From IMG/VR virus record IMGVR_UViG_2778261269_000005, positions 1 through 37,915 of that record: a stretch of DNA of 37,915 bases; one strand, 5' to 3'. Below the pieces are notes generated by a model. That model was given only the letters and a program-made list of their open reading frames with translations, was not told where the DNA came from and did no database searches. Shown one piece after another: positions 17,531 through 33,981 of the stretch. This stretch comes from a virus. Its lineage: Duplodnaviria > Heunggongvirae > Uroviricota > Caudoviricetes. A program made the position numbers and the translations under genes. Numbering within the stretch: the first letter of the stretch is position 1; each line of letters begins with the position of its first letter.

Positions 17531-17551
17531 AAAAAGGCCGCATAGCGGCCT
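17531..17551. terminator. bidirectional terminator-like hairpin
   Basis: AGGCCGC-ATA-GCGGCCT 7-bp GC stem flanked by an A-run upstream and T-rich sequence downstream. Confidence 0.45.
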
Positions 17552-17572
17552 TTATGGTTTATTGACAATTGA

Positions 17573-17788
17573 TTAAGACGTGTGGCACTTATTGGCACAC
17601 CAATAGCAACCATTCACCCGGGAATATCCTTTGGCCTTTGCCTCTGTTACCGCCGAAGAACAATCACTATAGTAACCAAGGTAATCGCGGTTAGCTACAG
17701 CAGGAAGATATGAACATTCCTCAGCATGCACCTCATGATCGCCATTGCTCTGAGCATTTTTGTTCACGTAATAGTGTTTAAAAACCAT
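17573..17788 (-). CDS. hypothetical small Cys-rich protein (moron between lysis genes and cos)
   Basis: 71-aa ORF in AT-rich DNA; C-terminal CYWCANKC; no family recognised. Confidence 0.4.
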   Translation of the reverse strand: MVFKHYYVNKNAQSNGDHEVHAEECSYLPAVANRDYLGYYSDCSSAVTEAKAKGYSRVNGCYWCANKCHTS

Positions 17789-17911: not shown

Positions 17912-18121
17912 TCAAATGTTTTTCTGACTATTATTGGGCTGATAAACAGATATTATTTGAGCGTTTTGGTTCATTACATAAGCAATATCTCCATCTTTCA
18001 GAATGACTTTCCCATCCTTTCCCGATACGGCAATACTCCGCTGCTCTGGATGATAGCCAATGCTACGCCCGCAATGGATCTCTTCCCCACCATTTTGAGA
18101 CATGACTTTTACAGTTAACAT
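17912..18121 (-). CDS. hypothetical small protein (moron)
   Basis: 69-aa ORF in AT-rich DNA; no family recognised. Confidence 0.35.
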   Translation of the reverse strand: MLTVKVMSQNGGEEIHCGRSIGYHPEQRSIAVSGKDGKVILKDGDIAYVMNQNAQIISVYQPNNSQKNI

Positions 18122-18208: not shown

Positions 18209-18391
18209 TCAGTTCTGCATACACTGCCTGGCACTTTCGACAATTTCGCAGACCTGCGAGGCCGTATCGAAAAGCTGGCGCACCTTATCCAGGCTAACGC
18301 ATCCCACCAGGAAAAACGACACCAGTATCGCTACCAGTGCCCATTTCGCCGCCGTTCGCGGCATTCTGTGTGTCCAGTGTTTTCGGCTCAT
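18209..18391 (-). CDS. small outer-membrane lipoprotein (possible o-spanin-like lysis accessory)
   Basis: Start set at ATG 18391 (AGGTGG RBS): MSRKHWTHRMPRTAAKWALVAILVSFFLVGC... has basic n-region, hydrophobic core and LVGC lipobox; 29-aa mature part with 3 Cys; directly after the endolysin. Confidence 0.5.
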   Translation of the reverse strand: MSRKHWTHRMPRTAAKWALVAILVSFFLVGCVSLDKVRQLFDTASQVCEIVESARQCMQN

Positions 18392-18405
18392 AAACCACCT
18401 GGTTA

Positions 18406-18789
18406 TTAGCGCTTCAACTGAAAGTGAGGCCCGTCTTTCAGCGTTTTCCAGTCCCCGCCCCATTCGATGGCGATTCCCAACTCTGCGCCAGCCTGCTTAA
18501 ATGCCTGCGCGATTTTCTCGTACAGAGGCCAGTCCCATGACACCTGGCTGCCAACGTAGGCAACAACATCCACCGCATCACCGGTCAGGTGGCGGCTGTT
18601 CATGGTCTGGCTTTTCCCTTCCGCGACCAGCTGCTTCTGGCGATACTTACTGCGCAGGCCTTCCGTAATACCGAAATCAACCTCCGTCAGCTCCAGCGCA
18701 CGGCGAACAACAGCAACCAGCTGTGGTTTGACGCCCTCCAGATTTTTCTCACTTCGACGACTGAATCTGAATTTACCGGGCATACTCAC
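18406..18789 (-). CDS. endolysin, peptidase M15 family (L-alanyl-D-glutamate peptidase type)
   Basis: 127-aa ORF with SRHLTGDAVDV and GIAIEWGGDW, typical of zinc M15 cell-wall peptidases; ATGA overlap with the preceding membrane protein. Confidence 0.75.
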   Translation of the reverse strand: MSMPGKFRFSRRSEKNLEGVKPQLVAVVRRALELTEVDFGITEGLRSKYRQKQLVAEGKSQTMNSRHLTGDAVDVVAYVGSQVSWDWPLYEKIAQAFKQAGAELGIAIEWGGDWKTLKDGPHFQLKR

Positions 18790-19073
18790 CTCCGTAATGA
18801 AAGGATTTTTGATACGTTCCCGCGTGCTCGTATCACCAGCACGCAGAACACCAGGTTAATCAGGACGACCAGCCAGTTACCGGGTGGAAAGCGACCACAC
18901 AGATAACAAAGCGGCGCAAAGGCATAAAGCAGCATCAGCAGCCAGGCCAGCCACGACATCAGCGGTTTATGTCTCGACTCACCACGACGATAAAAAAAGA
19001 GCGTCAGCACGATAACCGTGCTTAACACCACATTCAGTAATCCGGGAAGGTTACTTAACATTACCGCCTCCAC
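18786..19073 (-). CDS. small membrane protein of the lysis cassette (holin/antiholin-like)
   Basis: 95-aa ORF with 3 predicted hydrophobic helices, between holin and endolysin. Confidence 0.55.
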   Translation of the reverse strand: MEAVMLSNLPGLLNVVLSTVIVLTLFFYRRGESRHKPLMSWLAWLLMLLYAFAPLCYLCGRFPPGNWLVVLINLVFCVLVIRARGNVSKILSLRR

Positions 19074-19440
19074 CCCGCAGACGGGAGAACAGCCCGGATA
19101 CCAGCGATGCGATATCCTGCTGGTGGATGAATGAGAGAATCTTCACCGACACCACCGATACCAGTACCGCGCAAAGCGCGTCGAGAGATGTGCTGTGAAG
19201 ATTCAGTTTTTCAACCAGGTAAGACGCCATCACATCCGCCCCCAGCACGCCAACAATGAACGACACCAGAAAATGCGCTGCCACACGCCAGACAGAAATC
19301 TGCTGTGGTATCGTGGCCACAAACAGCGCCCCTGCGAATGCACCAAACACAATCCCGAAATCCGTTCCGGTAAACAGCCCGAATACTGTCGCCCCGCCGA
19401 GCGCCGCAGCCGTGCCGGAACCGGACAAGGGTTCAGACAT
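19051..19440 (-). CDS. putative holin
   Basis: 129-aa ORF with several Gly/Ala/Val-rich hydrophobic helices, AGGAGA RBS, first gene of the lysis cassette. Confidence 0.55.
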   Translation of the reverse strand: MSEPLSGSGTAAALGGATVFGLFTGTDFGIVFGAFAGALFVATIPQQISVWRVAAHFLVSFIVGVLGADVMASYLVEKLNLHSTSLDALCAVLVSVVSVKILSFIHQQDIASLVSGLFSRLRGGGGNVK

Positions 19441-19912: not shown

Positions 19913-19989
19913 TGGAGAGCGGGTGGCGAGAATCGAACCCACATCATCAGCCTGGAAAGCTGAGGTAATAGCCATTATACGATACCCGC
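19913..19989 (-). tRNA. diverged tRNA-Gly(UCC)-like gene, possibly a pseudo-tRNA
   Basis: Minus strand reads GCGGGTATCGTATAATGGCTATTACCTCAGCTTTCCAGGCTGATGATGTGGGTTCGATTCTCGCCACCCGCTCTCCA: cloverleaf with GGTTCGATTC T-loop and UCC anticodon, but a 7-66 mismatch, wobbles in the T-stem and no clean CCA. Confidence 0.55.
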
Positions 19990-20206: not shown

Positions 20207-21253
20207 TTAAAAATCTTTCGTGATTTCTCTGACCGTCTGATTAAAACGTTCCTCTTCCAGTTCCACGCCAATCGCCCTGCGTCCCAGCGACAGTGCCGCT
20301 TTTATTGTCGACCCCGACCCCATAAAAAAATCTGCGACCAAATCGCCTGGACGGCTGCTGGCAGTAATTATCTGACGCAACATATCCGCCGGTTTTTCAC
20401 AGGGATGTTTACCCGGATAATACTGCACGGGCTTGTGCGTCCAGACATCCGTATACGGAACGGCAGCCGATACGGAAAAATAACGCCGCAGGGATTTGTA
20501 CTCATCCAGCAGGCTGGCATATTGCCGGTTCAGTTCGCTGTATGTGCTGACCAGCTGGTGGGGTGGCTGCTCCAGTTCACCGCGCTGGTGTTTTTCTGCC
20601 GCAACACGCGCAAACAACGCCTGCAGTTTACTGTAATCGGCCTCATTCGGTAACTGCCACTGACTGGTACCAAACCAGTGCGAAGCCATGTTTTTCTTTC
20701 CGGTGGCTTCAGCTATCTGTTTTGACGTTATCCCCAGTAATTCACGCGCATCACGGAAGTAAGAAATCAGCGGAGCCATCACGTGCTGTTTAAGCTCGCG
20801 CCCCTTTGCTGCATAGCCGTCATTTTTTGGCTGGTATGGCCCCTGATAATGTTCAGCAAACAGAATGCGCTCTGTTGCCGGGAAATATGCCCGTAAACTT
20901 TCCTTATTGCACCCGTTCCAGCGTCCGGACGGCTTCGCCCAGATAATGTGGTTCAACACATTAAAACGTTCACGCATCATGAGTTCGATATCTGATGCCA
21001 GTCGATGGCCACAGAACAGGTAAAGACTTCCGGCAGGCTTCAGTACCCGCCAGAACTGTGCAAGACACTGGTCCAGCCATTTCAGGTAATCATCGTCCCC
21101 CTTCCACTGGTTATCCCAGCCCTCGGGCTTCACTTTAAAGTATGGCGGGTCTGTGACTATCAAATCGACAGAGTTTTCCGGTAAGGTCAGGATAAATTCC
21201 AGGCAATCAGCGTTGACTAACTCACAGCTGGATATTTTTACAGTATTAGCCAT
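20207..21253 (-). CDS. DNA methyltransferase, beta-class N6-adenine/N4-cytosine (DPPY) family
   Basis: 348-aa ORF; N-terminal LIVTDPPYF (motif IV) and C-terminal DFFMGSGST (motif I). Confidence 0.85.
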   Translation of the reverse strand: MANTVKISSCELVNADCLEFILTLPENSVDLIVTDPPYFKVKPEGWDNQWKGDDDYLKWLDQCLAQFWRVLKPAGSLYLFCGHRLASDIELMMRERFNVLNHIIWAKPSGRWNGCNKESLRAYFPATERILFAEHYQGPYQPKNDGYAAKGRELKQHVMAPLISYFRDARELLGITSKQIAEATGKKNMASHWFGTSQWQLPNEADYSKLQALFARVAAEKHQRGELEQPPHQLVSTYSELNRQYASLLDEYKSLRRYFSVSAAVPYTDVWTHKPVQYYPGKHPCEKPADMLRQIITASSRPGDLVADFFMGSGSTIKAALSLGRRAIGVELEEERFNQTVREITKDF

Positions 21254-21774: not shown

Positions 21775-22488
21775 TTAACGCACTCTGACTGTATTAATTT
21801 CAAAATCATTAATATTTCCGCTATTAAATATAACGAATTTCTTACCCCCACTCCTGTATGATTTCGATAACACCAGACGAGCATCATAACGCGCAATAAT
21901 GTAATACCATACATTCTCATAGTGGATCGCCTGATATTCCCTCTTAAACTGTGGTTTGTACCAACCGGCAATGAGAGAGAATGCCCAGAAATAAATCATA
22001 AACCCAGCCATCATGAACTCAATTCGGTGATGGCGAATAAAAGACATTTCCGAAAAACATTTGACTGAAACAAGTCTTCTTCCAGACCTGACAAAAAGCG
22101 TGATTGTAAAGGCAGCAAGAATGCAGAAAATCAGTACATCTGGCTCAACATGCTGATGAATTACCGAAAACTCCAGAACAGGTGGAATAAAAAGCAGCAA
22201 TATCGCGAGAAAAAGCCGGATAAAACTCAAATTTTGTATATTGCGCTTTTGTTTTATGCCCAAAAAGAAAATAATACCAACTCCCCATCCAATAAGGAAT
22301 ATAACGATAACTGTCACAGCATAAAACAAACTTCGTGCTACATCATCGACACCAGCCCCGACAACCCACCATGGAAAGCCATAGTAAAATGAAGTACCCC
22401 ATCCATAGAAATAAGCGCTTCCCCATCCTAGACAGCCCATATAAGCAACAAAAAGTGAAGAGTTTCTGAGCAGAGCACTGTCATCCAT
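21775..22488 (-). CDS. hypothetical polytopic membrane protein (AT-rich moron downstream of Q)
   Basis: 237-aa ORF in a markedly AT-rich island; aromatic-rich N-terminus (WGSAYFYGWGTSFYYGFPWWVVGAG), several hydrophobic helices, about 100-aa soluble C-terminus. Confidence 0.55.
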   Translation of the reverse strand: MDDSALLRNSSLFVAYMGCLGWGSAYFYGWGTSFYYGFPWWVVGAGVDDVARSLFYAVTVIVIFLIGWGVGIIFFLGIKQKRNIQNLSFIRLFLAILLLFIPPVLEFSVIHQHVEPDVLIFCILAAFTITLFVRSGRRLVSVKCFSEMSFIRHHRIEFMMAGFMIYFWAFSLIAGWYKPQFKREYQAIHYENVWYYIIARYDARLVLSKSYRSGGKKFVIFNSGNINDFEINTVRVR

Positions 22489-33592: not shown

Positions 33593-33781
33593 ATGGAAAC
33601 GTTATTACTCAATTCCACTACGCCTGAGACTCGTTTTGAAATTGGCGTTATCACTGGCGATAAAAACTTTATTGAGGATGCCATTAATCAGATAAAGCAT
33701 GAGCCAGATTCATCAAATGAGATATGCATTGCTTCAATGCTGGCCCGTTTACGCCCGACGCAAAAAGGATGCTGGCAATGA
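33593..33781 (+). CDS. dicB: cell division inhibitor DicB
   Basis: Start set at internal ATG 33593 (62 aa): METLLLNSTTPETRFEIGVITGDKNFIEDAINQIKHEPDSSNEICIASMLARLRPTQKGCWQ. Confidence 0.85.
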   Translation: METLLLNSTTPETRFEIGVITGDKNFIEDAINQIKHEPDSSNEICIASMLARLRPTQKGCWQ

Positions 33782-33981
33782 ATACCACATTTGCACTTGT
33801 TCTGACGGTTTTTCTTGTTTCCGGTGAAACAGTTGACATGGTTATTGGCGTATACAGCTCAATGAAAGAATGCATGGCTGCCGCAGATGAACAGAAAATT
33901 CCCGGTAACTGTTATCCGGTCGATAAAGTTATTCACCAGGATAATAACGAAATCCCGGCAGGACTTAAAACAGCGCCGTAA
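33778..33981 (+). CDS. ydfD: YdfD-like small membrane/lysis protein
   Basis: Start set at ATG 33778 (ATGA overlap with dicB stop): MNTTFALVLTVFLVSGETVDMVIGVYSSMKECMAAADEQKIPGNCYPVDKVIHQDNNEIPAGL... Confidence 0.7.
   Translation: MNTTFALVLTVFLVSGETVDMVIGVYSSMKECMAAADEQKIPGNCYPVDKVIHQDNNEIPAGLKTAP

Follow-up and report, generated by a model that had tools for sequence, protein, structure and literature searches.

A conserved o-spanin-like lipoprotein without an inner-membrane partner in the lysis cassette of a lambdoid E. coli prophage

The stretch of DNA analysed here, which we call the window, comprises 37,915 nucleotides of a tailed-phage genome (IMG/VR record IMGVR_UViG_2778261269_000005), and our subject is a gene for a small lipoprotein that directly follows the endolysin gene on its minus strand. 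Around it, a lambdoid E. coli prophage has its complete lysis cassette, which is part of the late operon and is of the phiP27 type. The lipoprotein holds the slot normally occupied by the spanin genes, and neither here nor in any relative examined does it have an inner-membrane spanin (i-spanin) as its partner. In other words, the protein resembles an outer-membrane spanin (o-spanin), it is without an i-spanin across the whole of a fairly widespread family, and the only prior classification of any family member rests on an unsound partner open reading frame (ORF). We put the chances at slightly less than even that the lipoprotein serves in lysis by acting at the outer membrane with no partner in the inner one, which would imply a mode of outer-membrane disruption different from that of spanins. 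The question is a general one, as a 2018 census could assign no spanin to approximately 13-15% of the phages that infect Gram-negative hosts (PMC6139136).

According to the original prediction, no overlapping or adjacent ORF carries the N-terminal transmembrane domain (TMD) expected of an i-spanin, and this is borne out both by six-frame scans and by the annotation of a near-identical prophage. Namely, when all starts in six frames were scanned for hydropathy, nothing in the late region was found to combine an N-terminal TMD with 35 or more residues after it, and no TMD-bearing ORF is embedded in the lysis genes or overlaps them. The two small ORFs downstream of the lipoprotein gene, of 69 and 71 residues, have no TMD and are therefore not spanin candidates. 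Several other candidates were considered and rejected: an ORF at 33778-33981 (DUF1482-type, in the early region), which lies off the operon; an internal start in a 237-residue ORF at 21775-22488, which lies within a gene; a gene embedded in the endolysin gene, which is ruled out by an out-of-frame ratio of nonsynonymous to synonymous substitution rates (dN/dS) above 2; and a remnant of Rz in the alternate frame over the 5' half of the lipoprotein gene (the frame of L32 in phiP27), for which BLASTP against the Rz of Salmonella phage 118970_sal3 (hereafter sal3) gave no match and the out-of-frame dN/dS is approximately 1. In E. coli strain OkiPb01716, which carries a prophage with 99.4% identity over a 2.8-kb query, the PGAP annotation contains no spanin from the integrase to the tail fibres, and the same is true of the part of that prophage that lies beyond the edge of the window (J, lom and a tail fibre gene, followed by the host gene potB). 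A spanin hidden in a short or embedded ORF, or encoded elsewhere in the late operon, was therefore not found, and the prediction stands on this point. Compared with a two-component spanin, the system has what one expects of the o-spanin, i.e. a small lipobox lipoprotein encoded with the lysis genes, but a cognate i-spanin is absent, and no Rz homologue was found in the 96 related loci with an intact copy of the lipoprotein gene. What is more, only 29 residues extend past the lipid anchor, as compared with a combined periplasmic length of 62 residues in the shortest pair of the census, a figure that itself includes a doubtful partner, as discussed below.

The prediction of a 60-residue precursor with an LVGC lipobox and three cysteines was confirmed, with the mature part having 30 residues if the lipidated cysteine is included and 29 after it. 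The three cysteines are the lipobox Cys31 and, in the same precursor numbering, Cys48 and Cys57; among cluster representatives the first is conserved in 106 of 111, the second in all 110 and the third in 106 of 110. The conserved start is the ATG at 18391, which sits 14 nt past the endolysin stop, while the 84-residue ORF that begins at the ATG at 18463 is merely an open frame. The n-region of the signal peptide is long, basic and rich in His and Trp (MSRKHWTHRMPRTAAKW), the signal peptide is the one hydrophobic segment of the protein, and the chain ends at residue 60. AlphaFold2 predicts a single continuous helix spanning residues 12-59, with a mean predicted local distance difference test score of 73, and the mature helix is calculated to be strongly amphipathic (hydrophobic moment 0.55), with a net charge of -1. 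In E. coli, the identity of residue +2 governs whether a lipoprotein is sorted to the outer or to the inner membrane, and the Val found at this position predicts sorting to the outer membrane. When all start codons in the six frames of the window were examined for a lipobox, this lipoprotein was the only match. Its sole significant PHROG match is phrog_7528, a phage protein family whose function is not known, and this match is full-length (E 9.2e-35, residues 25-84 of the 84-residue open frame against profile positions 1-60 of 60); searches against Pfam (E <= 1), NCBIfam and PADLOC gave no matches at all.

A comparison of its copies shows that the gene is a genuine one and that purifying selection acts on it to a degree similar to that seen for the holins and the endolysin. 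Selection was measured as Nei-Gojobori dN/dS over 96 full-length copies, representing 48 distinct DNA sequences from phage records, IMG/VR contigs and genomes, and all 96 copies are intact. The value is 0.20 in frame, as opposed to 0.92 and 1.77 in the other two frames, and it is lower still in the mature part (0.12) and in its core, codons 32-47 (0.05). For comparison, the values are 0.25 for the first holin (holin_8), 0.42 for the second and 0.11 for the M15 endolysin. In codons 1-9 the ratio is 0.17, and therefore the 60-residue start is favoured over the 51-residue form of the literature.

The genomic neighbourhood of the gene was compared over 97 loci, consisting of 80 IMG/VR contigs together with phage and genome records, with three Rz types used as queries. 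In every locus with intact upstream sequence the order is holin_8, holin_3_7, an M15 or GH108 endolysin, zero to three small ORFs, and the lipoprotein, and homologues of the three tested Rz types were found in none of the 97 loci, with a single exception, the Shiga toxin (Stx) phage GER2. The direct endolysin-lipoprotein junction of 14-17 nt seen in the window recurs in 34 of the loci. In E. coli, a 201-nt junction probe was at least 80% covered in 228 of 5,426 complete genomes, and the lipoprotein gene was detectable in 297. When the search was widened, first exhaustively with a profile and then with another search for homologues, the family was found also in Salmonella, Citrobacter, Cronobacter, Enterobacter, Lelliottia, Leclercia, Mangrovibacter and Yersinia, with identities of approximately 35-45% in the most distant genera, and a scan of genome contigs gave a single locus, from Lelliottia. 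The holins vary in these distant relatives, with Enterobacter and Mangrovibacter having a single Phage_holin_3_1 holin and Lelliottia a different single holin-like protein. The linkage between endolysin and lipoprotein is kept with either type of endolysin, and the linked loci carry packaging modules as different as lambda Nu1/A, HNH with Terminase_4, and ParB with Terminase_2. In the other genera, the lipoprotein gene begins right at the stop codon of the endolysin gene or only a few bases away from it (the TGA directly abuts the ATG in Mangrovibacter, and the two overlap as ATGA in Yersinia), and no i-spanin-like ORF was seen near the lipoprotein in any of these loci. The conserved unit, in other words, consists of the holin or holins, the endolysin and the small lipoprotein, and the standalone character originally ascribed to the latter extends to its relatives, its partnerless position directly after the endolysin being kept across genera. 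Two matches that appeared distant, P0105 and P0101, were rejected as examples of true divergence, since the contigs that gave them have fragmented gene calls and are probably frameshifted assemblies, and the N-terminal half of P0105 reads in the alternate frame.

Three groups of relatives depart from this arrangement. In the GH108 loci (L007, 4661-4843 and 4861-4995), two extra small membrane-protein genes lie between the endolysin and the lipoprotein, one encoding a 60-residue member of phrog_1115 and the other a 44-residue member of phrog_4906, with one TMD and a dN/dS of 0.06, that lies 5 nt upstream of the lipoprotein gene. Prophages associated with type II heat-labile enterotoxin (LT-II), namely Rac-SA53 and SerU-LTIIb, have the holin_8, holin_3_7 and GH108 cassette with the toxin genes after the endolysin, and neither lipoprotein nor spanin. 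Finally, GER2 has a cassette of S, R and an intact Rz/Rz1 pair, with a phrog_1115 homologue directly upstream of Rz (L005, 2130-2282), and its copy of the lipoprotein gene, located farther downstream (L005, 3501-3668), contains three in-frame stops. This pseudogene hints at redundancy between the lipoprotein and the spanins.

Where could such a protein have come from? Ordinary spanins fill the same slot in more distant cassettes that have both of these holin families. In sal3, it is occupied by a 130-residue Rz and an overlapping LysC-type Rz1 (PF23793, E 1.4e-16), alongside a related holin_3_7 protein, and in mEp390 and HK639, where the PF16931 and PF05449 holins occur together, it is occupied by a 91-residue i-spanin and a small o-spanin. 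The signal peptides of the Rz1 proteins of sal3 and Shigella phage SfII begin with MQNSRSHWSHREPR..SKW, to be compared with the n-region given above, and pairwise BLASTP with these two proteins gives 42% identity over 38 aligned columns (2e-8). The sal3 Rz1 also matches phrog_7528, at E 1.4e-4 and over the signal region, and the weak tblastn matches found outside the family in phage records (E 0.1-0.3) fall nearly all on annotated Rz or Rz1 genes. No match was found between the mature domain and PF23793 or the Rz-like PHROGs, including phrog_456, and the mature domains are unrelated. It is therefore plausible, going by the sequence of the signal-peptide half, that this half descends from an o-spanin of the LysC/Rz1 type, and the cassette could have arisen from an ancestral arrangement of holin_8, holin_3_7, endolysin and Rz/Rz1 that lost its Rz. 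As a separate observation, codons 1-17 of the lipoprotein gene (18340-18391 of the window) encode the conserved n-region, which resembles that of LysC-type Rz1, and show a dN/dS of 0.17-0.38, and here no overlapping Rz frame constrains them.

Such a history raises the possibility that the gene is a functionless leftover of Rz1, stranded after the deletion of Rz. An Rz1-like signal peptide of the LysC type on a short and unrelated mature domain is what one might see in this case, and phages can manage without a spanin anyway. However, this explanation is largely refuted by the selection data, both for the gene as a whole and, most clearly, for the mature core, and by the intactness of every full-length copy. 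In addition, the three cysteines are conserved, the family has been kept across eight genera down to the lowest identities cited, and the one genuinely unused copy, that of GER2, has gathered its three stop codons. We consider it very improbable that the gene is such a remnant.

The only earlier classification of a member of this family concerns phiP27, which Kongari et al. listed as having a "separated" two-component spanin, with an i-spanin at 20348-20542 (64 residues, of which 32 are periplasmic) and an o-spanin at 20706-20861 (51 residues, with a mature part of 30) (PMC6139136). With its 62 periplasmic residues combined, the pair is the shortest in that census, both of its proteins are singleton families, and unconventional partners fall outside the census criteria, as its authors state (PMC6139136). 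The o-spanin entry is a direct homologue of the window lipoprotein, with 87% identity, and the conserved start gives a precursor of 60 residues rather than the 51 of the census. Its 64-residue partner is doubtful, because the ORF has a TTG start and no PHROG match, because it is antisense to a better-supported gene, a 90-residue ORF that matches phrog_36812 (E 5e-20) and was the one picked by the gene caller in a related contig, and because, apart from phiP27 itself, a single phiP27-like E. coli contig was found to have the insert that holds it. The 64-residue ORF is absent from the window. For these reasons, the "shortest spanin pair" of phiP27 is probably without an i-spanin. Elsewhere in the literature, Rz was found in 277 of 279 Stx phages, and the same survey describes a two-member Stx2e cluster with a separate endolysin and holin family (PMC8136144); we infer that this cluster accounts for the two Rz-less phages. 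A paper on the Stx2e holin reports a different holin configuration and mentions neither a spanin nor the lipoprotein (PMC12571312).

If the phiP27 pair is set aside, one may still ask whether the lipoprotein has a partner that escaped recognition, the two making up a non-canonical two-component system with the lipoprotein as its outer-membrane half. Such a partner could be a trans-envelope host protein of the TolA or TonB type, with a topology like that of an i-spanin, one of the two holin-like proteins or, elsewhere in the family, the phrog_4906 or phrog_1115 protein or the 64-residue ORF of phiP27. In favour of this, the census authors took the homologue in phiP27 for an o-spanin, the signal peptide appears related to those of true Rz1 proteins, and in the GH108 loci the conserved single-TMD gene lies just upstream of the lipoprotein gene. 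On the other hand, phage-encoded candidates are missing both from the window and from all 34 loci that share its direct junction, the 44-residue protein would expose only approximately 11 residues to the periplasm, and the 64-residue ORF suffers from its restriction to two records and from the better gene on the opposite strand. The second holin is no universal partner either, as the distant relatives have one holin of another family and no holin_3_7. Moreover, 29 residues are far too short to cross the periplasm, and we regard an unrecognised partner as improbable.

Several known systems can be compared with the lipoprotein. Like the o-spanins, such as lambda Rz1 and the LysC family of P2 (PF23793), it is a small lipoprotein, predicted for the outer membrane and encoded by the last gene of the lysis cassette; its n-region is probably homologous to that of the sal3 and SfII Rz1 proteins, and both have conserved periplasmic cysteines, which in Rz1 form intermolecular disulfides. 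It differs from them in that its mature part has 30 residues rather than the approximately 75 of sal3 Rz1 and is predicted to be fully helical rather than proline-rich or extended, and in that no i-spanin gene accompanies it. For unimolecular spanins of the T1 gp11 type, too, one gene encodes the protein with its N-terminal lipobox and the cassette lacks an i-spanin, but such proteins have a C-terminal TMD and a bridging periplasmic domain, whereas here the chain stops shortly after the anchor, without a second hydrophobic segment. Disruptin, the gp28 protein of phiKT, is also a short, amphipathic and helical peptide encoded in the spanin-less cassette of an E. coli phage, and could be a functional analogue. 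It has been described as a cationic antimicrobial-like peptide and has not been reported as a lipoprotein (bioRxiv 10.1101/515445), whereas the protein described here is lipid-anchored, slightly negative and has conserved cysteines, and the two have no sequence relationship. Finally, in size and in the possession of a lipobox, but in these respects only, the protein resembles the small bacteriolytic lipoproteins. These include the lysis proteins of colicin operons (bacteriocin release proteins) and entericidin B, which are made as precursors of approximately 45-60 residues with a lipobox and yield mature lipopeptides of approximately 27-33 residues that compromise the envelope. The bacteriocin release proteins have no extra cysteines and are plasmid-borne, beside colicin genes, and our lipoprotein shows no sequence similarity to them and no Pfam match at the threshold given above, a result that would cover a colicin-lysis family if there is one in Pfam. 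In the mode of action that we propose, it would be functionally nearer to the phiKT disruptin or to these small lipoproteins than to a spanin.

How, then, could a lipoprotein act at the outer membrane without an inner-membrane partner? Following the established pathways, Sec, Lgt and LspA would process the precursor, with cleavage between the Gly and the Cys of LVGC, and Lol would carry the lipid-anchored amphipathic helix of 30 residues to the inner leaflet of the outer membrane, this destination being expected because residue +2 is Val and not Asp. There the lipopeptide would build up harmlessly during late gene expression. After the holin had fired and the endolysin had removed the murein, the lipopeptide alone would weaken or rupture the outer membrane, possibly in the form of an oligomer linked by disulfides through Cys48 and Cys57. 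Bridging of the periplasm is not part of this scheme, because 29 residues cannot reach the inner membrane. Taken furthest, the proposal would make the family a third class among the phage proteins that lyse the outer membrane, one independent of spanins, in which an amphipathic helix of approximately 30 residues with a lipid anchor opens a breach from the inner leaflet after the loss of the murein. In a more exotic variant, it would recruit a host trans-envelope protein, for example TolA, as a surrogate i-spanin. We offer this class as a possibility, and more guardedly than the partnerless action at the outer membrane as such.

A number of points weigh against the lipoprotein being an outer-membrane lysis protein that acts alone. 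Full-text literature searches found no experimental work on any member of the family. Unlike disruptin, the tethered helix of 29 residues is not cationic, its net charge being -1, and any activity of it on membranes is a proposal. Spanins are dispensable under laboratory shaking in the absence of divalent cations, and therefore the conservation of the slot is no proof of a role at the outer membrane. The LT-II prophages have no lipoprotein, and the gene is therefore not obligatory in the cassette; in the GH108 loci, with one or two small membrane-protein genes interposed, a partner may exist; and GER2, with its decayed copy, is a single example. In addition, an exhaustive profile search recovered no LysC Rz1 protein at E <= 1e-3, and the ancestry proposed above concerns the signal-peptide half of the protein only.

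Some of the same facts could be explained if the cassette were truly spanin-less and the lipoprotein a late accessory protein rather than an outer-membrane effector. In this case it might save progeny from being wasted on cell debris by blocking a receptor or envelope component, as Llp of T5 does, exclude superinfecting phages or adjust the timing of lysis, and the outer membrane would fail by shear, osmotic force or some other factor. The mature peptide matches no lysis family, the LT-II prophages carry the cassette without it, and in some relatives KilA-N, a 93-residue ORF or toxin genes are inserted between the endolysin and the lipoprotein, so the slot tolerates cargo unrelated to lysis. 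There is also precedent for small phage lipoproteins with exclusion roles, namely Llp, Cor and Bor. However, the gene is linked to the endolysin and shows no such linkage to any module for tails or receptor binding: prophages with lambda-like and those with P27/HK97-like packaging and morphogenesis modules downstream carry the same lipoprotein, and superinfection exclusion in particular is weakened as an explanation by this pattern. The gene lacks a separate promoter and its translation is coupled to that of the endolysin, which makes expression in the lysogen unlikely, and it has decayed in the one phage that has Rz/Rz1. We consider a purely accessory role unlikely, if less so than an unrecognised partner, and the partnerless lysis protein remains the reading that we prefer.

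The organisation of the cassette (Table 1) is as originally described, with a holin, a second membrane protein, an M15 endolysin and the lipoprotein following each other, all four on the minus strand. The second holin-like gene overlaps the end of the first by 11 nt. The endolysin, whose relatives are annotated as L-alanyl-D-glutamate endopeptidases, is computed to have neither a TMD nor a signal sequence and would therefore depend on the holin for its export. A sequence scan found no promoter-like site between the endolysin and lipoprotein genes, and terminators are found 5' of the holin and 3' of this segment of the operon; therefore, the two genes are expected to be co-transcribed. The layout of the leader hairpins is typical of a late operon antiterminated by Q, and a homologue of the antiterminator Q is annotated upstream in the near-identical prophage.

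Table 1. Positions of the lysis cassette genes and of neighbouring features in the window.
Feature	Position	Strand	Evidence or remarks
Three terminator-like hairpins in the leader 5' of the first holin gene	19632-19614, 19592-19575, 19481-19466	minus	
Holin, 129 aa	19051-19440	minus	PF16931 Phage_holin_8, E 5.4e-22; phrog_198 holin, E 1.4e-41; ~3 TMDs
Second holin-like membrane protein, 91 aa from ATG 19061 (PGAP start)	18786-19061, frame open to GTG 19073	minus	PF05449 Phage_holin_3_7, E 4.4e-21; phrog_217 holin, E 2e-35; 3 TMDs
M15 endolysin, 125 aa	18406-18783, frame open to GTG 18789	minus	PF13539 Peptidase_M15_4, E 3.8e-12; phrog_465 endolysin, E 1e-75
Shine-Dalgarno-like AGGTGG	18395-18400	minus	read from the sequence; within the 14-nt spacer between endolysin stop (18406-18408) and lipoprotein ATG (18391)
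Prolipoprotein, 60 aa, MSRKHWTHRMPRTAAKWALVAILVSFFLVGC followed by VSLDKVRQLFDTASQVCEIVESARQCMQN	18209-18391	minus	LVGC lipobox; phrog_7528
Lipoprotein signal peptide, codons 1-30	18302-18391	minus	basic n-region, hydrophobic core, first three lipobox residues
Mature lipoprotein, 30 residues, CVSLDKVRQLFDTASQVCEIVESARQCMQN	18212-18301	minus	starts with the lipobox Cys, codon 31
Downstream late-operon ORF, 69 aa, phrog_3909 (function not known)	17912-18121	minus	no TMD
Downstream late-operon ORF, 71 aa, phrog_4298 (function not known)	17573-17788	minus	no TMD
Strong bidirectional terminator-like hairpin, 9 bp, 6 GC	17533-17553		between the two small ORFs and the terminase genes

Several observations concern the surroundings of the cassette rather than the lipoprotein itself. 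In the window, the slot between the methyltransferase gene and the holin contains only a tRNA-Gly(tcc) gene (19917-19989, minus), while elsewhere it holds Stx2e together with tRNA genes (phiP27, L001 5150-6729) or Stx2k (in the Stx2k phage). Genes for a pertussis-like toxin are situated just upstream of the holin in Rac-SA53 and in one Cronobacter locus, and LT-II genes are situated downstream of the endolysin in Rac-SA53, SerU-LTIIb and one Yersinia kristensenii locus. In Enterobacter cancerogenus (L107, 2458-3222), the gene directly upstream of the holin encodes a 254-residue protein with a TMD at residues 40-58 followed by a Gln/Glu-rich region that looks like a coiled coil; this ORF was not seen at the same position in the other loci inspected. 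As far as the database records are concerned, the lipoprotein gene (60-62 residues) is unannotated in phiP27 (NC_003356; L001, 3026-3214, minus), where another frame, called as "L32", covers the 5' half of the gene, and in pPE4 (L002, 3026-3208, minus). The latter record (PP818812.1, "Actinobacillus phage vB_Apl-pPE4") carries the label of Actinobacillus pleuropneumoniae as its host, which seems questionable, given its approximately 86% DNA identity to the lysis region of the E. coli prophage.

What do these findings mean for the phages concerned? To begin with, the phiP27 entry among the published spanin pairs is probably in need of correction, and there is an annotation gap to be closed, as the lipoprotein is missing from the phiP27 and pPE4 records and its gene is labelled "hypothetical" by PGAP. 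More generally, our literature searches for alternatives to spanins found only the phiKT disruptin, and the lipoprotein family is a second E. coli candidate for spanin-independent disruption of the outer membrane, by a mode not described before. If this is true, an entire lineage of Enterobacterales prophages would be served by the family, among them those associated with Stx2e, Stx2k and LT-II. Since the cassette adjoins the genes for these toxins in the relatives, the extent to which the envelope is opened at lysis would bear on the release of the toxins.

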